A stretch of 59,200 bases of DNA from Patescibacteria group bacterium. Lineage in GTDB: Bacteria > Patescibacteriota > Minisyncoccia > Minisyncoccales > UBA5738. A program made the position numbers and the translations under genes. The stretch's first letter is position 1, and each line of letters begins with the position of its first letter. The DNA is taken from contig JAXDBQ010000020.1 of assembly GCA_034678605.1 (NCBI GenBank), forward strand, positions 1 to 59,200. The letters are read 5' to 3'. Shown one piece after another: positions 12,473 through 54,353 of the stretch. The notes beneath the pieces are model-generated. The model worked only from the letters and a program-made list of their open reading frames with translations, ran no database searches and was not told where the DNA came from.

Positions 12473-14488
<2,016 letters not shown>

Positions 14489-14492
14489 GATT

Positions 14493-16523
14493 TTACTTTT
14501 TAACGCGCCAGTCCGGATTTTTTTCAATCGCCGCGATTGATTTTTCCTGCCAAGCGGCAATCTCTTTGGCGTCCAATGTTTTATTTTTCGCCCGCAAATG
14601 GAACCGGAACAAAATATTTTTTATTTTTTTGTCGGGATAAACATAGGGCGCGTCCGGAATTTCAAAATTTTCGATCAGCTTTAAATCATCGGCGCTTTTT
14701 ATCGCGCCGGCAACATCCGCCGCTAAGGTTTCAACCGGCATATCCACCGAAATATCGCGCCCGGCCTCGGGATGAAAAGACAATGGTTGATACTCGATTT
14801 TTTCACTGGCCAATTCGGCCATGGCATCAACGCTCAACTCGAAAACCATCAACGGCTCGATCATCAGATTTCTAGCGATCGCGGGACTAACCATTCCCAC
14901 CGCGCCGATCTCTTTTTTGCCGGCAACGATATTGGCGCTTTGTTTTCCGTCAAAATAATCGCGCGGTTCGGCCAACGGCAAAAATTCAACTTTGGCAATC
15001 CCCAATTTTTGAAAAACAAATTCCAGCGCGCCTTTAACTTGCCAAAAATCACCGGCCTTGGAAAATCCGGCCAGCATCACCGGCTCATCGCGCTTGTTTT
15101 GGGCAAACGCCCGACCGATCTCAAATTGATTCAACTGGCGATGATTGTGGTTTTTACAAATATTTTTCAAAAGATTAACCAATAGGGTCGGCCGCAAAAA
15201 CCGCAAATCCGCGTTCACCGGATTGGCCACCTCCAACAACATTTTACCGTCAATGGCGAAATTTTGACAATCATTATCGGAAATAAATGAATAATTGCGC
15301 GTTTCGGAATATCCCGCGCAGATCATAGCATCTTTAATCTTGTTTTTCCACTGCCAAAAATAATTCTTTTGGGGAGGGGTAATCGGCCCGCATGGAATTT
15401 GCGGCGCCACCAAGTCATAGCCCGCGATCCGGCCGATCTCTTCGACCAAATCCTCGGCAAAATTAATGTCCGATCGCCGCGCGGGAATCAAGACCTCGAT
15501 ATTGACCGCGCCAACTTTGCGCGCCGCCAAGCCAAGCGCTTCCAAATGCTTTTTAACTTGCGCGCTTTGAATCGGCCGGCCCAAAATTTTCTCGGCTTTT
15601 TCCAAATTCAAAATTATTTTTTTTGATTTTGGCAGATTGCCGCTTTTATCCGCCGCGCCGGCCAAAATTTGCCCGCCGGCAACTTTTTCCACGATTTGGC
15701 AAACCCGGCGGCAAACCTCCAAAGTTTGGCTTGGATCCAGATTGTGCTCAAACCGCGTCGACGCGTCCGTGGCCAAGCCCAAAGCGCGGCCGGCCCGGCG
15801 CACCGATTTGGGATTGAAATTAGCCGATTCAAGCACGATGGCCGCGGTTTGAGAATCGATTTCGGCCCGTTTGCCGCCTTTGATGCCCGCAACCGCCAAC
15901 GGTCCGGTCTCATCGGCGATCAGCAAAATTTCGGGCGTTAAATTATAGATTTTTCCGTCCAATGACTCCAATTTCTCGCCTTTTTTGGCCAACCGCACGA
16001 TAATCTTTTTGACTTTGGTTTTCGAGGCCGCGTTTTGCAATTTATCCCAATCAAACGCGTGCAATGGCTGGCCGGTTTCCAACATCACATAATTGGTGGC
16101 ATCCACCACATTGTTGATCGACCGCAGGCCGCAGGCCTCCAAGCGGCGCGCCAGCCAATCCGGCGATTTTGCCACTTTGATCCCAACCATCACCATGGCC
16201 GTGTAGCGCGGGCAAATCTCGGGATTTTTCACCTCCACCGCCACCATTGATTTGGCCGCCCCCGCTTTTTTGGCCGCCACCGGTTTTATCTTATAAAAAT
16301 TCGGTTTGTGGCCCAAAATCGCGCCGATTTCCCGCGCCAAGCCGACGTGCGACCGGCAATCCGGCCGGTTGGAAAGAATATTCACGTCGATTACCCAATC
16401 GTTTTTCTTTTTTTCCAAGCCCTCAACCTCAAAACCGTGCTTGAGGATCAAGCGCGCCAGCTCCGCGGCCGGGGGCAGTTTTTTATTGAAAAATGATTGA
16501 AGCCATTCGTAACTAAACTTCAT
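14493..16523 (-). CDS. pheT: Phenylalanine--tRNA ligase beta subunit (short, apparently lacking the B2 OB-fold)
   Basis: NRPDCRSHVGLAREI, INNVVDATNYVMLETGQPLHAFD, LESANF, ASTRFE, DLVEEIGRI. Confidence 0.95.
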   Translation of the reverse strand: MKFSYEWLQSFFNKKLPPAAELARLILKHGFEVEGLEKKKNDWVIDVNILSNRPDCRSHVGLAREIGAILGHKPNFYKIKPVAAKKAGAAKSMVAVEVKNPEICPRYTAMVMVGIKVAKSPDWLARRLEACGLRSINNVVDATNYVMLETGQPLHAFDWDKLQNAASKTKVKKIIVRLAKKGEKLESLDGKIYNLTPEILLIADETGPLAVAGIKGGKRAEIDSQTAAIVLESANFNPKSVRRAGRALGLATDASTRFEHNLDPSQTLEVCRRVCQIVEKVAGGQILAGAADKSGNLPKSKKIILNLEKAEKILGRPIQSAQVKKHLEALGLAARKVGAVNIEVLIPARRSDINFAEDLVEEIGRIAGYDLVAPQIPCGPITPPQKNYFWQWKNKIKDAMICAGYSETRNYSFISDNDCQNFAIDGKMLLEVANPVNADLRFLRPTLLVNLLKNICKNHNHRQLNQFEIGRAFAQNKRDEPVMLAGFSKAGDFWQVKGALEFVFQKLGIAKVEFLPLAEPRDYFDGKQSANIVAGKKEIGAVGMVSPAIARNLMIEPLMVFELSVDAMAELASEKIEYQPLSFHPEAGRDISVDMPVETLAADVAGAIKSADDLKLIENFEIPDAPYVYPDKKIKNILFRFHLRAKNKTLDAKEIAAWQEKSIAAIEKNPDWRVKK

Positions 16524-16635
16524 AAATTCGTGATTTAAGATTTATGATTTAAGATTTAAGAATAAATTCGAATTTAAAATCATAAATCCTAAATCTTAAA
16601 TCCGCATTTTTCCGCTTTTTAAACCAATTTTGTAA

Positions 16636-19984: not shown

Positions 19985-20071
19985 TTTAAAAGATTTATGA
20001 TTTATGATTTAGGATTTAAGAATAAACGCATTTAAAATCATAAATCTTAATTCTTAAATCTTAAATCTGTT

Positions 20072-36100: not shown

Positions 36101-37276
36101 GTGATTTCTTGGGTTTCCCTCATAAGTCGTTTTCCCTTGCAAAACGCCGTCAACATAAAACGCGGCGGTTTTCGCGTTTGTATCAACCGTAGCCGCCAAA
36201 TGATGCCATTGGCCGACGTCATAGGTGGCTAAAGAAGAAACTCCGAAAAATCGGTCATCGGCAGTGTATGATCCAAAATGAAACCGGCGATCGCTGGCAA
36301 AATTAATATTAGTATGAAAACCCGGCTTGCAAATTATTGCCTGTCGGCTGTGGTATTCGTTTTGATCATATACCGGGATACTGGCCGGGTTATACCATGC
36401 CGACCAAGTATAGCTATGTTCAGTAATATCTTTCAATGTCGGTGAAACCACCGCTTCCAGAGAATTATTGCCGGTAAATTTTAACGCCTTGCCGAATTTT
36501 CCCGCCGCAAGTGTCGGGCAAGGATCCGACAAATTGCAAATCTGATGGTTCCCAAATCCGGACCAATCCTTGAACAAGAGCGATGATTCGCCGTTTTCGC
36601 CGTCAAACTTCCACCAGCCGACCAAGCCATCGTTATAATTCCCCGAAGATAAAACGCAAGATCCATCCAAGCAAATTTTTCCGCCGGCGCATTTTGAATC
36701 ATCATCTTGCCACACAGAACCGTCGGAGTTGCAAACCTTGCAACCCAAAACCGCGCCCGGAACACAAGTTGCGTAATTGGCGCATTTTTCAATTTTCACC
36801 GAATTGCTCGATCCCTTCACGACGCGGTATAAACTTCCGCCGATAGCGGCTTGATTGGGCATATTCCCCGAGAAATAAGTGGAGCCGGTATTTTGCCACT
36901 CGGTCCAATTTTTAGAAGATTGGTATATTCTTTTCCAAAGCATATCATCGCCGCCAATGCCCGAGGCCGTTATCTTGCCATCCGCGCCTAATACCAGATT
37001 TGGGCCGGTGATCAAAACACCGCCCAACGAATACCATTCGTTTTTGCCGGTTTGAGGGTTGTATTCGTTGATCCATAATGCGTCATCCGTACCCACGGCC
37101 GCGATGACTAATTTCGTATCACTATCCGCATAGATCGCCGGCTTATATTTGATGATGCCCCCGATATCGGCAAAGCTTGACCAATTTTGGCAATCGGCGG
37201 CTAACGCCTGGATTGCAATACATTGAAAAAACAATGTGGAAACAAACAATGAAAATAGAATGATTCGTTTTTTCAT
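33197..37276 (-). CDS. Secreted modular Cys-rich surface protein 2 (1359 aa): propeller-like repeat, LamG, beta-helix
   Basis: Signal peptide; AAVGTDDALW/WYSLGG repeat; GLVGWWKFD...VGQWHHLAAT...GLIDDVRVYSRAL (LamG/ConA); pectin-lyase-like beta-helix; many CVAKTC...CG modules; same C-terminal helix. Confidence 0.92.
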   Translation of the reverse strand: MKKRIILFSLFVSTLFFQCIAIQALAADCQNWSSFADIGGIIKYKPAIYADSDTKLVIAAVGTDDALWINEYNPQTGKNEWYSLGGVLITGPNLVLGADGKITASGIGGDDMLWKRIYQSSKNWTEWQNTGSTYFSGNMPNQAAIGGSLYRVVKGSSNSVKIEKCANYATCVPGAVLGCKVCNSDGSVWQDDDSKCAGGKICLDGSCVLSSGNYNDGLVGWWKFDGENGESSLLFKDWSGFGNHQICNLSDPCPTLAAGKFGKALKFTGNNSLEAVVSPTLKDITEHSYTWSAWYNPASIPVYDQNEYHSRQAIICKPGFHTNINFASDRRFHFGSYTADDRFFGVSSLATYDVGQWHHLAATVDTNAKTAAFYVDGVLQGKTTYEGNPRNHENLPLSIGICSEIGMNHDWLANGLIDDVRVYSRALTENDIKAVYNGKANPNPFTGKKDKYDCDIAGQTQGCKICRPLTMKWADDSTQCGKGQVCVDGGCITGTPPIPATFDVTVSKSGNIATAKNKNGGVISSGSNYTQVIRAAIAATPDDGSLYIGPGIYDGLVAGQKIANFYTVFSLEGKNMHIYGAGMGKTILKLGNNQHYYGHPALIFYATGYEYYGASYSALTLANMTFDGNRNNQTDLFVDGAGLVLTGGRRSGGKFFNLELINSADQGIYWGNGAGGAHGDYAGNWEAYGYMHNLQNRNNFWEAITFDNVQKIRASDLKSEYDSLNEDFCGTGMTIINVGDHDLDIIIDGLTIKNGHLTSSWGTHRGGGGITINDLTINAADRNNQNGASSHCILFAIANEVKLPLLVQNPKPITININSITGNSSSNSIFPGGVYIKNSTPRVTFNGGSISDYIAVNAVNSNVTINGTRLKSANNSLVAQNSKVNCTNCVLEPAPGKYMYSSIGSGAQINFANSFTTSMERTEVSGGGKVTGSLSILRTVCVPGVVSGCKFCKADGSAWQDDNSKCGANQTCQNGTCVNNPACVAKTCTTLGNYQCGDWSDGCGKTINCGTCGSNQTCSAGQCVATCASTCSLVGAKQCSGNGYQTCALSGGCLKWGATTACAAGTACNSGNCVATCVAKTCDSQGYKCGSVSDGCGKTLSCGSCSTGQTCVSGQCQTNCVAKTCAGLGNYQCGDWPDGCGKTINCGACPPNQTCSTGKCVSNCSSHASKKCDNGNLYWYNSCNTKEELAQNCGIDQTTDNYQCSSTWIQRKTLKKGCANNACFETSQWDNTTNCANSNKICANGVCAATCQPNTCANIGFQCGDANDGCGKTINCGSCAAGKTCSNGQCIAQSGGGGGGGGGGGMIEPQPPSREASASQGKINRGEILAKIAQIKQLLVQLIIQLIAELQKQLAAMPK

Positions 37277-37347
37277 TTTAAAAAATTATTGATTGTTTTA
37301 TTTTAACACAAAATCCGGCAAATCAATGCCAGGCTTGGCGTTTGCGA

Positions 37348-37395
37348 TTATTTTGGCAGAGCTACAAGCTGCTTTTGCAGCTCGGCGATAAGCTG
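37348..37395 (-). pseudogene. Orphan surface-protein C-terminal tail B (QLIAELQKQLVALPK*)
   Basis: Shares ATCGCCGAGCTGCAAAAGCAGCTTG (25 nt) with the end of 33197-37276; 23 nt after the TA toxin stop. Confidence 0.88.
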
Positions 37396-37418
37396 GGCGG
37401 TCAAAAAATCGGCAACCG

Positions 37419-38078
37419 TCATATAAAAATCCGGTTTTTCAATTTTCGCGCCTCATCAACAAAATAGTTCTGCCAATCGCGCCGATTAATCTTTATTTTC
37501 ATCCTCGGAAAATCTTTAACTTCTTTTGCCTGCGTAAATTGGCTGCCGAGCTGCAAAAGGTCAATATGGGTATCAAATTTGATCCTTGCTTTTTTGATCA
37601 AATCATCAATTTTAAACCCAAATTTTTGACGCAAGCAAAAAATATCGATAAAATCGCGGCTTCGGGGTTTTTGATAAATGGTAAAAACTTTATTGACGGC
37701 AATGTCCAGCGCGCTGTCAATCCGCAAATCGCCAATCTCTAAATATTCGCCAACCGCCGAAAACGGGAAATAAGTGAATTCGGTTTTCACGATATCGGCG
37801 CCAAAATCAACAAAAAACAAATTACGGTTAAAACTTTGTTGAAAATCAATTTTTGCAAAACCAAGATTATTTTTGTTTTTTGCCAAAAAAGCGCTGATCA
37901 CCTGCGGATCAACCTCGTTTTCCGAGAAAAAATCAAGATCCTCGGATATCCGATGATGCAAATAAAATTCGGCCAAAGCCGTGCCGCCGCCAAGATAAAA
38001 CGCGCGGCAAATTTCTTTGTCGCCGCAAATCGCGTTCAATAAATTTGTTTGGTTTTGCGTCAATATCGTTTTGGCCAT
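37419..38078 (-). CDS. AbiEii-like nucleotidyltransferase (DUF1814-type) toxin
   Basis: FYLGGGTALAEFYLHHRISEDLDFF, DIAVNK, RSRDFIDI. Confidence 0.9.
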   Translation of the reverse strand: MAKTILTQNQTNLLNAICGDKEICRAFYLGGGTALAEFYLHHRISEDLDFFSENEVDPQVISAFLAKNKNNLGFAKIDFQQSFNRNLFFVDFGADIVKTEFTYFPFSAVGEYLEIGDLRIDSALDIAVNKVFTIYQKPRSRDFIDIFCLRQKFGFKIDDLIKKARIKFDTHIDLLQLGSQFTQAKEVKDFPRMKIKINRRDWQNYFVDEARKLKNRIFI

Positions 38079-38263
38079 AACAACTTTGCGAGAAACTTTT
38101 TCTTTTTCGGATCAAGGTAAAGCTTGCGCCAGTATTTCTTTAAATCACGGGAATTTATTTTTTTTCCGTCCAAACCGAAATTAACCATCTGCTCCAAACG
38201 CCAAATGGCATATTTTTCTTTGTCTTTTTTTAATTCTGCCGTATCAACCGACCAATTTTTCAT
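38060..38263 (-). CDS. Small partner/antitoxin of the adjacent nucleotidyltransferase (DUF6922-like)
   Basis: 67 aa, NWSVD...WRLEQMVNFG...LDPKKKKFL; overlaps the toxin start; TGgTACAAT promoter-like sequence upstream. Confidence 0.75.
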   Translation of the reverse strand: MKNWSVDTAELKKDKEKYAIWRLEQMVNFGLDGKKINSRDLKKYWRKLYLDPKKKKFLAKLLWPKRY

Positions 38264-38322
38264 AAGTTAATTGTACCATTTTTCCCGCCAAAAATCCAGC
38301 TGATTTTGCGGCATTTTGCAAT

Positions 38323-40533
38323 TTACTTGTTCTGGATGCCTGCCAGCTGCTTTTGCAGCTCGGTAATGAGCTGGATGATCAATTGGATCAATAATTGCTT
38401 GATTTCGGCGATCTTTTGCAGGATCTCCTCGCGGGTCATAGGTTGTTGGGGTTCGGTGGTGCCGCCACCGCCGCCGCCGGAGCCGCCGCCGGAACCGGAT
38501 GAAACACATTGGCCGCTGGAATTGCATTTTTTGCCGGATTCGCACGCGCCGCAATTGATCGTGGCGCCGCAGCCATCGTTCCAATCACCGCATTGATAAT
38601 TGCCCAGCGTAGCGCAGGTTTTGGGAGTACAAATATCAGCAATGCATTTTTTAATTTCGGCACTACCGTCATTTTTTTTAATCGCTTTATAGGTTATCCC
38701 GTTAATTACGCCAGCATCAGAACCGCCAACGCTTATGTTTGCCGATGGCAAACCGATGGCTTTCCATTTAGTCCAATTTTTAGATGACATAAAAATGAGG
38801 GTCCACCCACCGCCATCATCTCCCGAGGCCGAAAGGCTTATTTTTTTATCAATTGTTTTGGCCAAACTCGGCCGTGATAACAACACTCCGCCCAGCGAAT
38901 ACCATTCGCCTTTTTTATTTCCCGGATCGTATTCATTAATCCATAAAGCATTATCGGTGCCCACGGCCGCGATAATCAATTTACCATTTGATTCCATTAA
39001 CGAAGGTTCGAATTTTGAAAATCCGCCGATATTATCCCAAAGTTCTGAATTGAGGCATAGATCAACACACCGGCCGGATGAGCAAGTTTTTCCGCTCGCG
39101 CACACGCCGCAGTTGATCGTCGAGCCGCAACCATTATCGGTATTCCCGCACTCATAATTCAAAAATGAGCATGTTTTGGCGTTGCAACCAGCTACGCAAC
39201 TGTTTTCGCAAAATGGAGCAATCGCCGCCTCAACTTTTTCAAACGGCAAATCAAGCCAACCGTCGGCTTGCTTCATTATATGATTATCAATATCAAAATA
39301 TATCAACGCATCACCTTTGCCTTTGTAAAAAGACGCGGCCGCCGGTTCATTCGTCCAAATATATACTTTTGCCGATGGAAATTTGCCGACAACTTGGGTG
39401 GCAAAATCTTCATATGAAAAATTAATCGTATCGCCATTTTTGTCTTTATATTGCTCCCATCCGATAAAATCCGGATCTGCGCCTTCGTTGCGAAACTCAA
39501 CATAATATTTCACCAACGATTCAACAATTCCAACCGCAACCGAAGGATTTGCCTGTTTTATATATTCTTTTAATTGGTTAAATTCCGCTCCGGATAATCC
39601 GGTACTTTCTGGTTGGCCCGCGGCAAAACGAGCCTTGAATTCATCTAACGCGATAACATCGACTCCGCGCCGCAACAACTCTTTACACTCTTCAACCCAA
39701 CCGCAATGCCCCATCACTTTAAATCCCTTTTTATGCGCGCTATTTATATTTGCGGTTGTCTGTCCCCCTGGCATGCTGCCTGAAATTCCAGTAAAATTAT
39801 CAGACATTTTATTAATATAATCCAAAAATTCTTGCTCAACTGCCCTATAGTCCAAATTATACGGAAAAAATCCCGCAAATATTTCAAGTTTCCTGCTACT
39901 ATCTTTACATACGCCATTATCGCAAACCTGGGTTTTGGCGCATTTTAAACTATAATCGCGCCATGCATCGCCGGTTATATCGCAAATTTTACAACCCAAA
40001 AATGACCCCGGAACGCAAAGTTGCGGCACGCATTTTTGAATTAATAATGAATTGCCGGAACTTTTTACGATTCTATATAATAATCCATTTGAGGTTGCTT
40101 CTTTGGGCCCGATGCCGGCAAAACCGCTTGTCCCCGCGACCTGCCATTCGGTCCAGCTTTTTGCTGCTGAATAATTTCTTTGCCAAATTGTAAAATTATC
40201 GCCGCCGATGCCCGAAAATCTGATTTTGCCGTCCGCGCCTTTGACCAAATTCGGGCCGGATGTTAGAACGCCGCCAAGAGAATACCATTCATTTTGATTG
40301 GTTTGCGGATTAAATTCGTTGATCCACAAGGAATCATCCGTGCCCACGGCCGCAATAATCAGTTTGTCATCCGCGCTTGCCGCAATTGCCGGATCATATT
40401 TAATTACGCCGCCGATATTGGCAACCGCCGTCCAATTTTGGCAATCCGCGGCAAAGACATTGTCCGCGCCAACCACAAAAAACATACCGCAAATTAGTAT
40501 CGCCAGAAATAACGGAACATTGATTTCCCTCAT
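38323..40533 (-). CDS. Secreted modular Cys-rich surface protein 3 (about 736 aa)
   Basis: Start at MREINV; two copies of the AAVGTD..LW/WYSLGG module; AT-rich central domain resembling a glycoside-hydrolase barrel (VDVIALDE, PDFIGWEQY); poly-Gly; same C-terminal helix. Confidence 0.88.
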   Translation of the reverse strand: MREINVPLFLAILICGMFFVVGADNVFAADCQNWTAVANIGGVIKYDPAIAASADDKLIIAAVGTDDSLWINEFNPQTNQNEWYSLGGVLTSGPNLVKGADGKIRFSGIGGDNFTIWQRNYSAAKSWTEWQVAGTSGFAGIGPKEATSNGLLYRIVKSSGNSLLIQKCVPQLCVPGSFLGCKICDITGDAWRDYSLKCAKTQVCDNGVCKDSSRKLEIFAGFFPYNLDYRAVEQEFLDYINKMSDNFTGISGSMPGGQTTANINSAHKKGFKVMGHCGWVEECKELLRRGVDVIALDEFKARFAAGQPESTGLSGAEFNQLKEYIKQANPSVAVGIVESLVKYYVEFRNEGADPDFIGWEQYKDKNGDTINFSYEDFATQVVGKFPSAKVYIWTNEPAAASFYKGKGDALIYFDIDNHIMKQADGWLDLPFEKVEAAIAPFCENSCVAGCNAKTCSFLNYECGNTDNGCGSTINCGVCASGKTCSSGRCVDLCLNSELWDNIGGFSKFEPSLMESNGKLIIAAVGTDNALWINEYDPGNKKGEWYSLGGVLLSRPSLAKTIDKKISLSASGDDGGGWTLIFMSSKNWTKWKAIGLPSANISVGGSDAGVINGITYKAIKKNDGSAEIKKCIADICTPKTCATLGNYQCGDWNDGCGATINCGACESGKKCNSSGQCVSSGSGGGSGGGGGGTTEPQQPMTREEILQKIAEIKQLLIQLIIQLITELQKQLAGIQNK

Positions 40534-41035: not shown

Positions 41036-41083
41036 TTAATTGGTTTTGGGCATTGCCGCCAGCTGCTTTTGCAGTTCGGCGAT
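41036..41083 (-). pseudogene. Orphan surface-protein C-terminal tail C (IAELQKQLAAMPKTN*)
   Basis: Matches the ends of proteins 1 and 2; starts 9 nt after the pfkB stop. Confidence 0.88.
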
Positions 41084-42364: not shown

Positions 42365-42454
42365 CGCTTTTTTTTATTCATTCCTCATAATACTTCGGGG
42401 CTATACCTGATGTAGTTTATTATAAAATTGTTTTCAATCTTTTTTTAGTAATTT

Positions 42455-42583
42455 TTATTTCCGCAGACCGCCGAGCTTGATGATGGTTTTCATAACGCTG
42501 TCGGGGTTAAGCGACATGGTTTCGATGCCTTCGCGCATGATGAATTCGGCAAATTCGGGATAATCGCTGGGCGCTTGGCCGCA
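42455..42583 (-). pseudogene. Orphan duplicate of the last 42 codons plus stop of ppsA
   Basis: 120/129 nt identical to 43460-43588; 8 of 9 differences are synonymous. Confidence 0.95.
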
Positions 42584-42660: not shown

Positions 42661-43218
42661 TTATTTGCTTTCCAATTTCAAATATTCGATCTCGCTTCTG
42701 ATGTCTTCAAAAAAGATATGATGCGATTTATGGATTTCCCATGCGACATTCCTTTCGAAACAAGCGAAAATCAACCGCTTTCCGTTGAGAATAACATCTT
42801 TTTTCAATCCAATAAAGTCGCTATCGCTGCTCACAAGCAGCACCGCGTCAATTTTATCCAAACTTCTTATCGCGGCGCAAGTAATTTCCACATCAAAATT
42901 GCATTTATATTTGAATTTAGATTTGGCGCTGTCCAAATAAATCTTTTTAAGCAGCTTTTCGATAATTTCAAAACCCGATTTTTCAATTCTGTCTTTGATC
43001 AATACATTTTTATCATAAGCGGCTTTCTCCAGCGGCATTCCCAAATAATACTTTGCGAATTTTACATTAAAATGCTTCTGGCAAAATATTAAGAACTTGC
43101 CCCAATCGATCCGCCAACCCGCGCTTTTCTGCGAATAAAACAAATTCGCCTCGTCAACAAAAATCCCAACACATTTCCCTTTATATTCGTCTAAAATTTT
43201 GTTAGCTTTGAAATTCAT
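42661..43218 (-). CDS. NYN (LabA/DUF88, PIN-like) domain RNase
   Basis: IFVDEANLFY, KCNFDVEI, LVSSDSDF, FFEDI. Confidence 0.9.
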   Translation of the reverse strand: MNFKANKILDEYKGKCVGIFVDEANLFYSQKSAGWRIDWGKFLIFCQKHFNVKFAKYYLGMPLEKAAYDKNVLIKDRIEKSGFEIIEKLLKKIYLDSAKSKFKYKCNFDVEITCAAIRSLDKIDAVLLVSSDSDFIGLKKDVILNGKRLIFACFERNVAWEIHKSHHIFFEDIRSEIEYLKLESK

Positions 43219-43441: not shown

Positions 43442-43459
43442 ATCAATAAAATTCTTTTT

Positions 43460-45853
43460 TTATTTCTGCAAGCCGCCCAACTTGATGATGGTTTTCATGA
43501 CGCTGTCGGGGTTCAATGACATGGTTTCGATGCCTTCGCGCATGATGAATTCGGCAAATTCGGGATAATCGCTGGGCGCTTGGCCGCAGATGCCGATGTA
43601 CTTGCCCCGGACCTTGCAGGCCGCGATCGCCTGTTTGACCAAAATTTTCACCGCCTCGTTGTTCTCACTGGCAATATGAGTCAATTGGCCGGCATCGCGA
43701 TCCAAACCAAGCGTTAATTGCGTGAGGTCGTTGGAACCGATCGACATGCCGTCAAAAATATCCAAGAATTGATCGGCCAAGATCACATTTGAGGGAATTT
43801 CGCACATCACCATAATCTTTAACCCATTCTGACCCGATTCGAGGCCGTTTTTTTTCATCACTTCAATCACTTTTTTGCCTTCCTCCACGGTGCGGCAAAA
43901 CGGAATCATCACCCACACATTATCCAGCCCCATCTGTTCTCTCACTTTTTTGATCGCCGCGCATTCCAGCGCGAATGCCGGCGCAAAGCGCGGGTCATAA
44001 TAGCGCGACGCGCCGCGCCAACCGATCATGGGATTTGATTCTTCGGGCTCGTATTCGCTCCCTCCCAGCAACGCGCGGTATTCATTGGTTTTGAAATCCG
44101 AAAACCGCACGATGATGTGCTTGGGATAAAACGCCGCCGCGATCGTGGCAATGCCCTCGGCAAGCTTGTCCACGAAAAATTCTTTTTTATCTTTGTATCC
44201 GAAAGTGATCTGCTCAATTTGCGCTTTCAGTTTTTTGTCTTTCAACTTGCCAAAATTTATCAGCGCCAGCGGATGCACCTTAACTTGATCGGCAAAAATA
44301 AATTCCACCCGCGCCAAACCCACGCCATCATTGGGCAAAAACGAGGCCTTAAACGCCGCTTCGGGCGTGCCCACGTTGAGCATAATCTTTGTCGGCAACT
44401 CCGGAATCATACCTAAATCATATTCCTTTTTTTCATAAGGAATCTTGCCCGCGTAAACCCGGCCTTCCAGCCCTTGGGTGCAATCCGCCGTGGCCATCAC
44501 GCCGTTTTTTAAAACTTTACTGCCATCACGCGTGCCCACAATGCAGGGCGTGCCCAATTCGCGCGACACGATCGCCGCATGGCAGGTTTTGGTGCCCTCA
44601 TCGGTCACGATCGCCGACGCGATGCGCATAATCGGCACCCAATCCGGGTCAGTCATGGTGGTTACTAAAATTTCACCGGCCTTGAACTGATTGATCTGTT
44701 TGACATTGGGAATAATGTGAATTTTCCCCTGGCCAATCTTGTGGCCCACGGCAATGCCGGCAACCAACGGCTTGGCGCTGGTTTTGACTTCGTATTCTTC
44801 GTAAGTATTTTGAGCAACCTTACCGGCATAGATGGTTTCCGGCCGCGCCTGCACAATAAACAATTCGCCGGTTTTGCCATCTTTGGCCCATTCGATATCC
44901 TGCGGCCCATGGTAGTGCTCCTCGATGATCACCCCCCACTTAGCCAATTGTTCGGCTTCTTTATCGGTCAACGAAAACCGTGCCCGGTCTTTGGGCAAAA
45001 CCTTCACTTCCTTCAAACCGACCTTCTTGTCAAAAATGTATTTGATATCCTTGTTGCCCAATGTTTTGGAAATGATCGCAGTTTTACCTGATTTTAAGGA
45101 AGGTTTAAAAACATAGAACTGGTCGGCCACCACATGGCCTTTCACGATCATTTCACCCGCGCCAAAAATCGAATTGATCAAAACCGCGTTGCGAAATCCG
45201 GTTTCCGTGTCCAAAGTGAACATGATGCCCGCCGAGGCCAGATCCGAGCGCACCATTTTCATCACTCCCACCGACAGCGCCACTTTGAGCGTGTCAAAGC
45301 CCTTTTCGACCCGATAAACGATGGCTCGCTCCAAAAACAGCGACGAAATGCATTTTTTCACCGCGTCCAGCAATTCCAAAGGCGTATCGATATTCAAATA
45401 GGTTTCATGCGCCCCGGCAAACGACGCGCCGGCCAAATCCTCGGCCGTGGCCGACGACCGAACCGCCACATTCACATTCTTGGTTTTGTAATAGGCCGAC
45501 AATTCCTTGTAGGCCGCCAAAATTTCTTTTTTGAAATCCGGCGGAAACTCGCCCTTCAAAACCAAATTGCGCGCCAAAGTGCTGGCTTTTTTGAGTTTAG
45601 CTAAATTGGAAGCATCCAAATCTTTGAAGATCGGTTCCAATTTTTTATCAATGCCGTTGTGCCGCAAATAGCGCCAATAGGCCGTGCTGGTGGTAATAAA
45701 CCCGTTGGGGATCGGCACGCCCTTTTCGCCCAATTGCGAAAACATCTCGCCCAGCGATCCGTTTTTTCCCCCGACCAGCTCCACGTCCTTTTTGGTCACT
45801 TCCTTGAACCACGCCACATTCCTCTCGTTTATGTTTTGATTTTCTGTTTCCAT
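43460..45853 (-). CDS. ppsA: Phosphoenolpyruvate synthase (pyruvate, water dikinase)
   Basis: VGGKNGSLGEM, VAVRSSATAEDLAGASFAG, QARPET, TCHAAIVSRELG (phospho-His), GVGLARVEF, SIGSNDLTQL, GICGQAPSD. Start taken at METENQ. Confidence 0.96.
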   Translation of the reverse strand: METENQNINERNVAWFKEVTKKDVELVGGKNGSLGEMFSQLGEKGVPIPNGFITTSTAYWRYLRHNGIDKKLEPIFKDLDASNLAKLKKASTLARNLVLKGEFPPDFKKEILAAYKELSAYYKTKNVNVAVRSSATAEDLAGASFAGAHETYLNIDTPLELLDAVKKCISSLFLERAIVYRVEKGFDTLKVALSVGVMKMVRSDLASAGIMFTLDTETGFRNAVLINSIFGAGEMIVKGHVVADQFYVFKPSLKSGKTAIISKTLGNKDIKYIFDKKVGLKEVKVLPKDRARFSLTDKEAEQLAKWGVIIEEHYHGPQDIEWAKDGKTGELFIVQARPETIYAGKVAQNTYEEYEVKTSAKPLVAGIAVGHKIGQGKIHIIPNVKQINQFKAGEILVTTMTDPDWVPIMRIASAIVTDEGTKTCHAAIVSRELGTPCIVGTRDGSKVLKNGVMATADCTQGLEGRVYAGKIPYEKKEYDLGMIPELPTKIMLNVGTPEAAFKASFLPNDGVGLARVEFIFADQVKVHPLALINFGKLKDKKLKAQIEQITFGYKDKKEFFVDKLAEGIATIAAAFYPKHIIVRFSDFKTNEYRALLGGSEYEPEESNPMIGWRGASRYYDPRFAPAFALECAAIKKVREQMGLDNVWVMIPFCRTVEEGKKVIEVMKKNGLESGQNGLKIMVMCEIPSNVILADQFLDIFDGMSIGSNDLTQLTLGLDRDAGQLTHIASENNEAVKILVKQAIAACKVRGKYIGICGQAPSDYPEFAEFIMREGIETMSLNPDSVMKTIIKLGGLQK

Positions 45854-45977
45854 AATATTGACAATATTATTATTTTTTAACCTAATCAACAATCAAATTT
45901 TTCACCCGGCGGTTACAAAACCAGATAATTGATTTTACCACACCAAAACCCCAAATCAAAATTCCGGCCTTGGTAAA

Positions 45978-46011
45978 ACATTCTCACATTCTTGAGAATG
46001 TGAGAATGTCG
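45978..46011. repeat. Dyad repeat copy 1 (ACATTCTCACATTCT-TG-AGAATGTGAGAATGT)
   Basis: Perfect 15-bp inverted repeat; 45981-46011 is identical to 47947-47977 (31 nt). Confidence 0.9.
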
Positions 46012-47889: not shown

Positions 47890-47946
47890 AACAACATTTT
47901 ACCATATTCAAGCCCTCGATAAAAGGCCGATCTATCAACAAAACCT

Positions 47947-47977
47947 TCTCACATTCTTGAGAATGTGAGAATGTCGA
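47947..47977. repeat. Dyad repeat copy 2
   Basis: Identical to 45981-46011; about 60 nt upstream of the antitoxin start. Confidence 0.9.
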
Positions 47978-48043
47978 TAAATATCGAAAGTTATATTTAA
48001 ATATAATTTGAATATAACTTTTTTCCATTTCAAGAATAGCAAT

Positions 48044-48085
48044 ATCTTAAATCTTAAATCTTAAATCTTAAATCTTAAATCTTAA
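48044..48085. repeat. Heptamer array (ATCTTAA)x6, reverse complement of the miaB array unit
   Basis: Six perfect copies; contains the acs stop codon. Confidence 0.9.
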
Positions 48086-50001
48086 ATCGGATTCACCGCA
48101 TTCTTGATGCTTTCGACGCTTTCGGGATTGGCCAGGGTGGATAGGTCGCCCAATTCCTCCTTGGTGAACGCTTTGCGCAAAATACGGCGCATTATCTTGC
48201 CCGAACGGGTTTTGGGCAGGTCGCTCACGATAAAAACCTCGTGCGGCGTGGCGATCGGCCCGATGCCGGACCTAATCGCGGCGATTACTTTCTCCTTCAA
48301 TCCGGCGGTATCGGCCGGGTTTTTGGCCACCACGAACGCCACCGGCACTTCGCCCTTGATCTCGTCCACCACGCCCACCACCGCGCATTCGGCCACGGCC
48401 GGTTCATGACAAGCCGCGCTTTCCAACTCACCCGTGGTCAACCGATGGCCGGCCACTTTGATCATGTCATCGGCCCGACCCACCACGCGCAACAAGCCAT
48501 GCTTGTCGCGCACGCCCAAATCACCGGAAAAATAATATTTGTTTTGGTATTGGCTCCAATAAGTATCAACAAATTTTTGCTCATTGCCCCAAACCCCGTG
48601 CAGCAAACTAGGGCAAAACGGCGGCACCAGCACCACGCTGCCTTCCTGGCCGGCTTTGCAAACTTTGCCGGCCTCGTCAACAACTCTTATCCGGATTCCC
48701 GGCAACGGCAAGCCCGTATGCGCCGGTTTGAACGGCCCGATGCCCGGCAAAGACGTCGCAATTATCCCCCCGGTTTCGGTCTGCCACCAGGTATCAAGGA
48801 TGGGGCACCGCTTTTTGCCCACTTCGGCAAAATACCAATTCCAGGCCTTTTCGCTGATCGGCTCGCCCACTGAGCCCAAAACCTCCAGCGTCTTCATCGA
48901 ATAGGGCTTCAAGATCTCCGTGCCGTTCTTCATGAACATCCGGATGGCCGTGGGCGCGGTATAGAACACGGTTACCCCGTATTTGTCGATCACATTGGCC
49001 CAGCGGTCCGGATTGGGATAATCCGGCAAGCCCTCAAACATAATAAACGTCGCGCCATTCAAAAGCGGCCCATAACAAGAATAAGTGTGCCCGGTGACCC
49101 AGCCGATATCAGCCGTGGACCAGAAGATATCATCGTCGGTGAGATCGAATATCCATTTATCGCTGGCATAGGCCGATACCATATAACCGCCGCATGTATG
49201 CAAGGCACCCTTGGGCTTGCCCGTGGATCCGCTGGTGTACAGAATGAACATCGGGTCCTCGGCATCCATGGTTACGGCCGCGCATTCGTCGGATTCGCCG
49301 CGAATTATCTGATCATACCAAATATCGCGCGCTTCGGTCCAGGCAACCTCGTTTCCGGCATGCTTAATGACCACGGTTTTTTGCACCCCGGTATCAATCA
49401 AACCCTCATCGGCCTGTTTTTTCAAATCCACGACTTTGCCCCGCCGGAAATACCCGTCGCAAGTAATCAACACCTTGGCGCCGGCATCCTGCAAACGCAC
49501 TTGCAGCGCCTGGGCGGAAAATGCCGAAAACACCACCGAATGCACCGCGCCGATGCGCGCGCAAGCAAGCATCGAAACTACCACTTCGGGAATCATCGGC
49601 AAGTACACTCCCACCCGATCGCCTTTCTTGACCCCTAATTTTTTGAGCGCGTTGGCGAATTTGTTCACGCGGCGATAAAGATCATAATAAGTGATCATTT
49701 GCGCCGGCTGAGCCGAATCATCGGCCTCCCAAATGATGGCCACCTTGTTTTTGCGTGTGCTTAAATGCCGATCCAAGCAATTCTCGGTGATGTTTAATTT
49801 TCCGCCCGCAAACCATTTGATATGCGGCGGATTATCAACATAGGCCTTGTTCCATTTTTTACGCCAAAGTAATTCCTTGGCCGCCGCCTCCCAAAACTTC
49901 ACCGGATTTTTCTCGGCAACCGTGTAAACGCTTTTCGCCTTCAACCACGCGCGCTTTTTTGCCACCGCGTCCGGCCAATAAAGTTCCCCTTTTTTTATCA
50001 T
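48082..50001 (-). CDS. acs: Acetate--CoA ligase (AMP-forming)
   Basis: GGKLNITENCLDRH, FILYTSGSTGKPKG, WSTADIGWVTGHTY, GSVGEPI, DTWWQTETG, LPKTRSGKIMRR. Confidence 0.96.
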   Translation of the reverse strand: MIKKGELYWPDAVAKKRAWLKAKSVYTVAEKNPVKFWEAAAKELLWRKKWNKAYVDNPPHIKWFAGGKLNITENCLDRHLSTRKNKVAIIWEADDSAQPAQMITYYDLYRRVNKFANALKKLGVKKGDRVGVYLPMIPEVVVSMLACARIGAVHSVVFSAFSAQALQVRLQDAGAKVLITCDGYFRRGKVVDLKKQADEGLIDTGVQKTVVIKHAGNEVAWTEARDIWYDQIIRGESDECAAVTMDAEDPMFILYTSGSTGKPKGALHTCGGYMVSAYASDKWIFDLTDDDIFWSTADIGWVTGHTYSCYGPLLNGATFIMFEGLPDYPNPDRWANVIDKYGVTVFYTAPTAIRMFMKNGTEILKPYSMKTLEVLGSVGEPISEKAWNWYFAEVGKKRCPILDTWWQTETGGIIATSLPGIGPFKPAHTGLPLPGIRIRVVDEAGKVCKAGQEGSVVLVPPFCPSLLHGVWGNEQKFVDTYWSQYQNKYYFSGDLGVRDKHGLLRVVGRADDMIKVAGHRLTTGELESAACHEPAVAECAVVGVVDEIKGEVPVAFVVAKNPADTAGLKEKVIAAIRSGIGPIATPHEVFIVSDLPKTRSGKIMRRILRKAFTKEELGDLSTLANPESVESIKNAVNPI

Positions 50002-50222
50002 AGTTTTTTATTTTTTTAATAATGATTTCCCTCAAAAATTATTCAATTATTCCAAATAAGGCACACATCCCCATTGACCCGGCCGCATTGTGCGCCCCTC
50101 GGAGCAAAAAATCTCGCCTCTTTGATCAATAAAAATAATATAAACCGCGAATATAACAAAAACAACCATTAAATAAATCAATATATTTTTCGTGCTTATT
50201 TTTTTCCATTTTTAAATTATTT

Positions 50223-51265: not shown

Positions 51266-51328
51266 TTCAACCACGCTCGTTTTTTTTGCCGCCGCGTCCG
51301 GCCAATAAAGTTCCCCTTTTTTTATCAT
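51266..51328 (-). pseudogene. Orphan duplicate of the first ~20 codons of acs (frameshifted)
   Basis: Matches 49940-50001 with 3 substitutions and one extra A; lies 14 nt after the gapA stop. Confidence 0.93.
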
Positions 51329-51342
51329 AAATTTAATTTAAA

Positions 51343-52365
51343 TTAAATTTTATTGCCGACAAATTCGGCGAATTCGGCCAGACGGGTGGAATAACCCCAT
51401 TCGTTGTCATACCAGGCACCCACTTTCACCAAATTGCCGTTGGCCATGGTCAAGCCCGAGTCCACAACCGACGAATAGCCGCTGCCGATGTAGTCGCTGG
51501 AAACCAGCGGCGCGGTTTCGAACGCCATGATGCCTTTGAGCGGCTTTTTTTGGCTGGCCTTTTCCAAGGCCGCGTTCACTTCCTCGACGGTTGTTTCCCG
51601 CTCCAGCTCGCACACCAAATCCACGATCGAGCCGGTGGGCACGGGCACGCGCAAGGCGATGCCGTCCAATTTGCCTTTTAACTCGGGAATGACCTTGCCG
51701 ATAGTCTTGGCCGCGCCGGTGCTTGTCGGGATGATGTTCAATCCGGCCGCCCGGGAACGGCGCAAATCCTTGTGCGGCAAATCAAGGATTTTTTGATCGT
51801 TGGTATAGGCGTGCACCGTGATCATAAAACCTTTGACAATACCGAAATTTTCATTCAAAACCTTGGCCACCGGCGCCAAGCAATTGGTGGTGCAGGAGCC
51901 CATGTCCACAATATTATCCTTGGCCGAGTCATAATTGTCGGCGTTGATGCCCGGCAAATAGGACGGAATTCTATCGGCATCTTTTGCCGGTGCCGAGATC
52001 ACCACTTTTTTGCCGCCCGCGATCAAATGCTTGGCCGCGTCGTCATATTTGGTGAACCTGCCGGTACATTCCAAAACCACATCCACGCCATATTTTTTCC
52101 ACGGCAAATCATGCGGTTCGGCAAGCGCGGCCACCGCGACTCGCGTCATGGATTTCTTGCCGCGAATTACAATTTCTTTTTCCGCCGCCTCGATTTCCTT
52201 GTCCCAACGGCCATAAATCGAATCATATTTCAATAAATGTGCCAGCACTTTGGGTTCGGTAAGATCGTTTACCGCCACCATATCCAATTCCGGATGCTTG
52301 TCAATGATTATTTTCAAAACATGCCGGCCGATCCGGCCAAGGCCATTGATCGCGATTTTAACCAT
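51343..52365 (-). CDS. gapA: Glyceraldehyde-3-phosphate dehydrogenase, type I
   Basis: IAINGLGRIGR, VLECTG, SCTTNCLAP, TVHAYT, NIIPTSTGAAK, RVPVPTGS, WYDNEWGY. Confidence 0.98.
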   Translation of the reverse strand: MVKIAINGLGRIGRHVLKIIIDKHPELDMVAVNDLTEPKVLAHLLKYDSIYGRWDKEIEAAEKEIVIRGKKSMTRVAVAALAEPHDLPWKKYGVDVVLECTGRFTKYDDAAKHLIAGGKKVVISAPAKDADRIPSYLPGINADNYDSAKDNIVDMGSCTTNCLAPVAKVLNENFGIVKGFMITVHAYTNDQKILDLPHKDLRRSRAAGLNIIPTSTGAAKTIGKVIPELKGKLDGIALRVPVPTGSIVDLVCELERETTVEEVNAALEKASQKKPLKGIMAFETAPLVSSDYIGSGYSSVVDSGLTMANGNLVKVGAWYDNEWGYSTRLAEFAEFVGNKI

Positions 52366-54256: not shown

Positions 54257-54353
54257 TAATTCGTGATTTAAGATTTAGGATTTATGATTTATGATTTTGG
54301 AATTCATTCTTAAATCATAAATCTTTATTCTTAAATCAGGACGATTGCTTAAA

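Follow-up and report, generated by a model that had tools for sequence, protein, structure and literature searches.

Contig JAXDBQ010000020.1 of a Patescibacteria group bacterium (Minisyncoccales; UBA5738; assembly GCA_034678605.1) carries a tandem array of genes for variable secreted proteins that share a C-terminal tail, and within this array a putative toxin-antitoxin (TA) pair is followed by a 48-nucleotide (nt) tail end with no gene body attached to it. We call this fragment orphan tail B (37395-37348; QLIAELQKQLVALPK and a stop codon). All positions are those of the window, i.e., the whole 59,200-nt stretch that was analysed (positions 1-59,200 of the contig). On balance, we consider that recombination at the conserved tail spliced the TA pair into the array as a cassette, and that the orphan is the tail end which was displaced.

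A first-pass annotation of this DNA had given the order as protein 3 tail, promoter, 67-aa (amino acid) gene, nucleotidyltransferase (NTase), orphan and junction, and all of these elements are in place on the minus strand, which is the coding strand for every gene in this part of the window. Array protein 3 (40560-38323; 745 aa, ending in QLITELQKQLAGIQNK and a stop) has its C-terminal tail at 38323-38430 (REEILQKIAEIKQLLIQLIIQLITELQKQLAGIQNK and a stop), with the tip AGIQNK, unlike the tip of orphan B. The left end and promoter of the cassette follow (38264-38322, with the extended -10 box TGGTACAAT at 38278-38270), then the gene for a 67-aa putative antitoxin or partner, predicted to be a four-helix protein (38263-38060), and the gene for a 219-aa AbiEii-family NTase, the putative toxin (38078-37419; PF08843, with the GGTAL...SEDLDF motif intact). 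The two open reading frames (ORFs) overlap by 19 nt (38078 vs 38060). After orphan B comes an array-type junction (37277-37347) made up of a hairpin, CTGGCATTGATTTGCCGG, with a T-run (37332-37315), an extended -10 box, TGTGTTAAAAT (37310-37300), and a leader, and this leads into array protein 2 (37276-33197, with its ATG at 37276; 1359 aa with a PLL beta-propeller and LamG, and the tail QLIAELQKQLAAMPK before the stop). A survey of ORFs and profiles found no transposase or integrase between 37348 and 38380.

The tail is a distinct sequence family. Its core, GARCTGCAAAAGCAGCT, occurs seven times in the window with two or fewer mismatches, against 0.03 expected, and six of these occurrences are tails or orphans, which a repeat search of the window also grouped as one six-copy, 48-nt family (D9). 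Orphan B reads CAG CTT ATC GCC GAG CTG CAA AAG CAG CTT GTA GCT CTG CCA AAA TAA, and its homology to the tails begins 15 nt 5' of the GAGCTG core. The alignment of all six tails that the first-pass annotation had called for places the protein 2 tail nearest to orphan B (38 matches over 47 nt), with the protein 3 and protein 1 tails at 34 each, and the longest identical runs are the 25 nt (protein 2 tail) and 19 nt (protein 3 tail) that had been given. Three synonymous changes and two conservative replacements separate orphan B from the protein 2 tail, and with its frame and stop preserved it looks like a tail end that was in use until recently. The resemblance continues past the stop: over 156 nt, the segment 37240-37395, which runs from orphan B through the junction into the first part of protein 2, shows 78% identity (D12) to the segment that runs from the protein 2 tail through its junction into the first part of protein 1. 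The junction had been described as decayed, but this was an overstatement, as its hairpin still scores as terminator-like in a terminator scan and the frame and stop of the orphan are intact. The interpretation of orphan B as the former 3' end of a tail-bearing gene, with its own terminator/promoter junction to protein 2, is supported. Separately, a frame of 24 codons, MTVADFLTAQLIAELQKQLVALPK and a stop, begins at an ATG overlapping the stop of the NTase (ATGA) and runs through orphan B (37348-37421), and orphan B could be translated as a micro-peptide through coupling to the NTase.

Judged by its occurrence in relatives, the 67-aa/NTase pair is a small mobile cassette with its own promoter. 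Orthologous pairs, with toxin identities of 59-74%, occur in four congeners (G005, G006, G004 and G011). In the complete genome (G006), the pair is flanked by the gene for a DUF2339 membrane protein and by cupin/NUDIX genes, and the tail motif does not occur within 20 kb of it; G005 and G004 have a common flank downstream of the pair, G011 provides a third context, and there are further contexts in loci L192 and L198. Alignment of the orthologous cassettes confines the homology between them to the stretch from the extended -10 box through the toxin stop, and the box itself, TGGTACAAT here, is conserved 5' of the orthologous cassettes as TGTGATAGAAT and TGTGTTATAAT. In the window, this homology starts ~46-62 nt 5' of the ATG (within ~10-20 nt of the protein 3 stop), and cassette-type sequence ends 0-23 nt before orphan B. 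The cassette is ~0.9 kb long and has a G+C content of 0.36-0.40, compared with 0.45-0.60 in the neighbouring array genes. The first-pass annotation had coupled two possibilities that together would count against its model, and comparison with relatives bears out one of them: the TA pair does occur at unrelated positions, but a simple internal deletion is not supported as the origin of the orphan. Two candidate signals at the cassette edges were rejected. The first was a match between the 23 nt past the NTase stop and the downstream gene of G005 and G004, which proved to be only a T-run, and the second was the TTGCAAAAT motif found 5' of both cassettes of the array, which is not a common insertion signal but the -35 region of each cassette itself. 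A search for direct repeats flanking the orthologous cassettes in other genomes gave nothing except a borderline 13-mer.

The second cassette of the array is an AbiE pair (30620-29237, with AbiEi at 30620-29997 and AbiEii at 30013-29237). It lies between array protein 1 (33125-30705; 806 aa) and orphan tail C (29237-29190; IQLTFELQKQLAAIK and a stop), which overlaps the AbiEii stop and is most similar to the adjacent protein 1 tail (38/47). Orthologues of the AbiE pair are located before murB or at other sites, and none is followed by a tail. Apart from the GGTAL...SEDLDF motif, the two array toxins have little in common, and each cassette is therefore an arrival independent of the other. The proposal that the 67-aa/NTase pair repeats the AbiE arrangement independently thus stands, each cassette having orthologues at other, tail-less sites in the genus.

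Orphan tails recur elsewhere in the genus. Arrays with the same tail occur at other loci of congeners, and three of them begin with an orphan: in G005 (contig C35) it lies between a TGGTAAAAT promoter and the first array gene, and in G009 (C9) and the homologous locus of G001 (C42) it lies between TTGATA...TGGTTATAAT and the first gene, whose ATG is overlapped by the orphan's stop. Counting the last two loci as one, there are five independent orphans (A, B and C in the window, G005:C35 and G009:C9/G001:C42). All five retain only the last 40-55 nt, through the stop, and their left ends lie 8-27 nt 5' of the core. If such end-points fell at random in genes of 2-4 kb, five of five within that ~20-nt stretch would have a probability of ~1e-9 by our rough estimate. 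This clustering argues that the tail end is a preferred joint.

Comparable scars are found at genes outside the array. A 132-nt direct repeat (93% identity; 42452-42583 and 43457-43588) covers the 3' end of ppsA and flanks a 185-aa ORF (42661-43218), and an 82-nt direct repeat (80%; 49955-50036 and 51282-51363) covers the start of a 639-aa gene (48082-50001) and flanks a 1.3-kb insert. With the AbiE cassette, these two inserts bring the further scars of this kind to at least three in the 59-kb window. Their common pattern is an accessory cassette, devoid of mobility genes, beside the end of a neighbouring gene that has been displaced or duplicated. Neither ppsA nor the 639-aa gene is an array member, so the loss of an array member is impossible as an explanation of those two scars. 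A 37-nt palindromic, terminator-like direct repeat (97%; 45975-46011 and 47940-47976) also brackets a 2-kb block, which contains a third AbiEii-type gene (47707-47006), a 78-aa partner (47889-47653) and a 175-aa secreted protein, and which is also present in G005 between acs and ppsA. Logan contigs end exactly within the 132-nt ppsA repeat.

We propose the following course of events. The cassette would have entered the tandem array in this lineage by an exchange at the stretch common to all array genes, i.e., the last 45-100 nt, which encode the ELQKQL tail. Such an exchange would leave protein 3 with a complete tail directly 5' of the cassette, and would push the former tail end (the last 15 codons and stop), still joined to its native junction to protein 2, downstream as orphan B. 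A likely mechanism would be a single crossover with a circular or one-ended homologous intermediate that carried a tail fragment and the cassette. Orphan B consists of QLIAELQKQL followed by VALPK and a stop, while protein 3 ends in QLITELQKQL followed by AGIQNK and a stop; on this analysis, differing tips are what would be expected of a displaced tip. Once in place, the TA pair could stabilise the repeat-rich array against deletion. The former owner of orphan B may have been either protein 3 itself or a lost neighbouring gene. Orphan B is nearest to the protein 2 tail, with 34/47 to that of protein 3, so a recent duplication of protein 3's own end is unsupported.

Several observations weigh against this proposal. 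The similarity between orphan B and the protein 3 tail (34/47) is below that of functional paralogous tails among themselves (38-39/47). With ~30-45 nt, the shared homologous fragment is close to the minimum for RecA-type exchange. Simple tip displacement does not predict orphans at the start of an array, where they follow a promoter or pfkB. Finally, a protein 3/protein 2 junction without the cassette was not found in the relatives or collections searched, and no donor was found in which this cassette follows a tail.

The first-pass annotation regarded the orphan as the remnant of a displaced array member. A former tail end with its own junction is what we also see, but we doubt the loss of a whole member, because the orphan end-points cluster, similar scars occur at non-array genes, and the cassette abuts both the protein 3 stop and the orphan. 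The strongest form of that alternative is that an array gene once stood between protein 3 and protein 2 and that the cassette replaced its promoter and body, leaving the last 48 nt and the junction. We rate this as doubtful, although it accounts well for orphan B and its junction being a paralogue of the tail and junction of protein 2 (78% over 156 nt; 38/47) and not a copy of the protein 3 end. In addition, the ~20 nt that come after the stop of protein 3 (ATTGCAAAATGCCGC) look like the left arm of an array junction, which suggests that the cassette landed in a junction that once led to another gene. The sequence TAAAATAACAAT past the protein 1 stop is similarly like the array leader after orphan A and hints at a second lost gene there, and a decayed gene fragment does follow orphan A. 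However, this explanation needs three independent losses here and two in other genomes, all ending in the same 20-nt stretch of 2-4 kb genes, and it does not extend to the scars at ppsA and another non-array gene, where there was no array member to lose. As the array proteins are mosaics without one-to-one orthologues, no candidate for the lost gene can be named.

A broader possibility, which we think improbable but worth stating, is that the tail is a general cassette-exchange site. The array would then consist of a promoter, a tail fragment and a series of units that each end in a tail, making it integron-like but integrase-free. DNA between two tails could be excised and re-inserted through host recombination (by RecA or a single Xer-type enzyme), and TA cassettes would guard against deletion between the repeats. 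If this is true, the tail would be a reusable exchange site, and through it the way surface proteins diversify would be tied to the way TA and defence genes are taken up. Surface proteins of Patescibacteria episymbionts probably matter for host contact.

It is also quite unlikely that the orphan is explained by its retention as functional DNA, serving as leader of the next array gene and terminator of the cassette while deletion bias trimmed the rest. There are features that fit such a role: the orphans of G009, G001 and G005 lie in the 5' leader of the first array gene, with a stop that overlaps or abuts its ATG; tail tips ending in KTN or KIN before the stop bear a -10-like TTAAAAT overlapping that stop; and orphan B is followed by a terminator-like hairpin. 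Orphan C, however, precedes the FBP aldolase/phosphatase (FBPase) gene, whose own conserved promoter works without a tail in four congeners. Function would in any case account for the retention of an orphan and not for its origin, so it is compatible with origin by displacement or from a lost gene.

Least probable of all is a site-specific cassette system of the integron or pdif type. The tail core contains the dyad AGCTGC-AAAA-GCAGCT with flanking GCCG/CGGC, which would serve as an att-like site; each array unit, TA pairs included, would be a cassette ending in this site, and an orphan at an array start would be the attI 3' of the promoter. The count of five units and six sites in this array (n+1) agrees with such a system, as do the orphans between promoter and first array gene at G005:C35 and G009:C9/G001:C42, and TA cassettes are typical of chromosomal integrons (bioRxiv 10.1101/2022.08.03.502626). 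The dyad is less convincing as a structure. Fold z-scores of the six tail copies against shuffled sequences are -2.4, -2.5, -2.1, -1.1, +0.3 and -0.9, so three of the six fold better than shuffles (z -2.1 to -2.5). The core forms a 6-4-6 dyad in three copies, with one or two stem pairs broken in the other three and in most tails of the genus, and the commonest variant in the genus, GAACTGCAAAAACAGCT, has two mismatches that break two of the six stem pairs. We therefore rejected the hairpin as a conserved structure, and we rejected an integron as well, there being no integron integrase beside the array and no attC-like conserved palindrome. Other points also weigh against the site-specific explanation: the only tyrosine recombinase (PF00589) in the genome is on contig C7 with no integrase near the array, the left ends of orphans vary by ~20 nt instead of being fixed, and such a site is absent both from the empty position between pfkB and the FBPase gene in congeners and from orthologous cassettes elsewhere.

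The array as a whole occupies a variable position in the genome. At its upstream end, the gene for a pfkB-family kinase (42088-41093) comes first in transcription order and is followed, 9 nt past its stop, by orphan tail A (41036-41083; IAELQKQLAAMPKTN and a stop), and at its downstream end, orphan C lies just 5' of the promoter of the FBPase gene (29122-28022). In four congeners (G003, G002, G008 and G006), a gap of 84-143 nt separates pfkB from the FBPase gene, and it contains a terminator and a promoter but no tail-like sequence. This tail-less adjacency shows that the array is an island, the 12 kb from orphan A to orphan C being a lineage-specific insertion. In G005, the same gap is filled by unrelated, pilin-headed surface genes on the opposite strand (C31; L021 11387-14551). 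Similar pilin-headed genes, also on the opposite strand, follow pfkB in G001 (C8; L022 7968-9944) and G012 (C21; L027 3015-7543), where the FBPase gene is on another contig. Together, these loci indicate that the site between pfkB and the FBPase gene is a shared hot spot for differing families of variable surface genes. The paralogous secreted proteins that follow pfkB in these congeners have a pilin-like N-terminus (MKQTKFAKALALS...).

Between orphan A and protein 3 there is a decayed leader and gene fragment (41035-40593). Past orphan A, an array-type leader is followed by a signal-peptide-like frame, IRKIFLVIFLAVLLFF..., with ATC in place of the start ATG, and then by two short ORFs (40993-40829 and 40832-40593), the whole resembling a decayed array gene that preceded protein 3. 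Because the array proteins are mosaics, gene order is not comparable across genomes. A protein search with protein 3 returned no relative above 47% identity, and two metagenome scans, one with protein 3 and one with the protein 2 leader, found nothing. An exact-pattern scan of genome contigs for the tail core gave nearly all chance matches in unrelated phyla and only two records of the genus.

The joins on which these arguments depend are reliable. Three independent Logan assemblies are identical to the window across them, and an NCBI metagenome-assembled genome (MAG) contig is >99.8% identical, so the cassette/orphan joins did not arise through faulty assembly. When the exact NTase was looked up, every assembly that came back was identical or >99.8% identical to the window, i.e., from the same population. 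Inside protein 3, at 39322-39397, a MAG contig of this population (L190) has a rearranged or extra copy of ~55-75 nt, which reflects either a varying number of repeats or a difference in assembly. Runs of a 7-nt unit (GATTTAA/GATTTAT, complement ATCTTAA) are scattered over many intergenic regions of the window, at 2101-2177, 14409-14443, 16518-16566, 19992-20026, 48034-48092 and 54258-54306.

The toxin side of the cassette is well defined by its family. The 219-aa protein matches PF08843 (AbiEii/DUF1814) over residues 25-207 with E = 2.8e-15 in Pfam, and matches the PADLOC AbiEii model at 7.3e-11. The toxin of the AbiE cassette also matches PF08843 (3.4e-19) and the PADLOC AbiEii model, and its 207-aa partner matches AbiEi at 6.6e-65 in PADLOC. 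The first-pass annotation had assigned the two pairs to different TA families, and this applies to the partners but not to the toxins, both of which belong to PF08843. Given this composition, the 67-aa/NTase pair probably acts as a TA system, with the NTase as the candidate source of toxicity and the 67-aa protein as the candidate neutralising factor.

The 67-aa partner has no match in Pfam, NCBIfam or PADLOC, and its AF2 model, a small four-helix protein (pLDDT 78), has no fold match among PDB structures. It has at least 441 homologues at 60-79% identity; all named ones are annotated as "hypothetical" and come from Patescibacteria or unclassified bacteria. From these searches, the family appears to be specific to Patescibacteria, uncharacterised and outside any known family. 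A member precedes an AbiEii gene in L192, L198 and L199, and precedes other genes in L194 and L196 (for proteins of 269 aa and 95 aa with no Pfam match), a pattern of neighbours that fits a modular, antitoxin-like partner. The L194 contig, from another member of the Patescibacteria, also has a reverse-transcriptase/bAvd locus resembling a diversity-generating retroelement near the 67-aa family gene. The locus also draws attention to a widespread, uncharacterised partner family of AbiEii-type toxins.

Little is understood of how Patescibacteria, with their tiny genomes and scarcity of recognisable mobile elements, acquire genes for defence and addiction. The locus described here is a clear example of a recurring pattern: with neither an integrase nor a transposase involved, small accessory cassettes come in where resident genes have their 3' ends, and a gene end is left displaced or duplicated. 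No description of such recombination scars in Patescibacteria was found in the literature searched, but systems in other bacteria provide four useful comparisons.

The first is the AbiE type IV TA system. As in that system, the cassette is an operon of two overlapping genes under a promoter of its own, and the second gene encodes an AbiEii (PF08843) toxin. It differs in the partner: the 67-aa four-helix protein found here bears no resemblance to AbiEi, which has ~200 aa and combines an N-terminal winged helix with a C-terminal domain, and in other genomes the partner family adjoins non-AbiEii genes. The second comparison is with sedentary chromosomal integrons, in which TA cassettes with their own promoters constrain cassette loss and can penalise large deletions from one repeat to another (Richard et al., bioRxiv 10.1101/2022.08.03.502626 / PMC13108822). 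Own-promoter TA pairs in an array of units separated by a repeated site are common to both, but the locus studied here has no integron integrase, no attC-type structure and no fixed crossover, and its repeat is coding sequence.

The third comparison is with insertion accompanied by a long target duplication, which has been described for restriction-modification genes (Nobusato et al. 2000, as cited in Furuta et al. 2010, PMC2853133). There, as here, a small defence- or addiction-type unit without a mobility gene is flanked by direct repeats of >30 bp, which overlap the gene upstream of the unit at its 3' end, and the 132-nt and 82-nt repeats provide examples in the same window. However, the repeats flanking the 67-aa/NTase cassette match at 34/47 (72%) and so are not near-identical, while the published cases are at 90% or more. 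The repeats here are also members of a multi-copy family, and the cassette may have inserted by chance between repeats that were already present. A single-copy unoccupied site was not found, and the empty site between pfkB and the FBPase gene is without any tail.

The fourth comparison is with the displacement of C-terminal tips in rhs and cdiA genes. For rhs, a single crossover with a circular intermediate has been proposed that needs no dedicated recombinase: a circle or one-ended fragment bearing a conserved fragment, a new tip and accessory genes pushes the old tip downstream (Jackson et al. 2009, PMC2935791). The array shares with these systems a conserved region, located towards the 3' end of a gene for a secreted protein, that would act as the recombination anchor, a working gene with one tip and, silent downstream of it, an older tip with a conserved piece and its own stop, and accessory genes between the two tips. 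Orphan B has the composition of an rhs-type orphan, i.e., a conserved fragment, a divergent tip and a stop, located 3' of an intact gene with another tip. The differences are of scale and content: the conserved fragment is ~30-45 nt here, while the rhs core extends over hundreds of bases, the tip consists of the 5-7 codons that end a structural tail and not of a toxin domain, the carried genes are a self-contained AbiEii-type TA pair and not a tip-matched immunity gene, and the Patescibacteria locus is an array of complete genes where the rhs and cdiA systems have one main gene and its orphans. We regard the orphan scar as a variant of recombination scars known in other bacteria and not as the product of a new mechanism.

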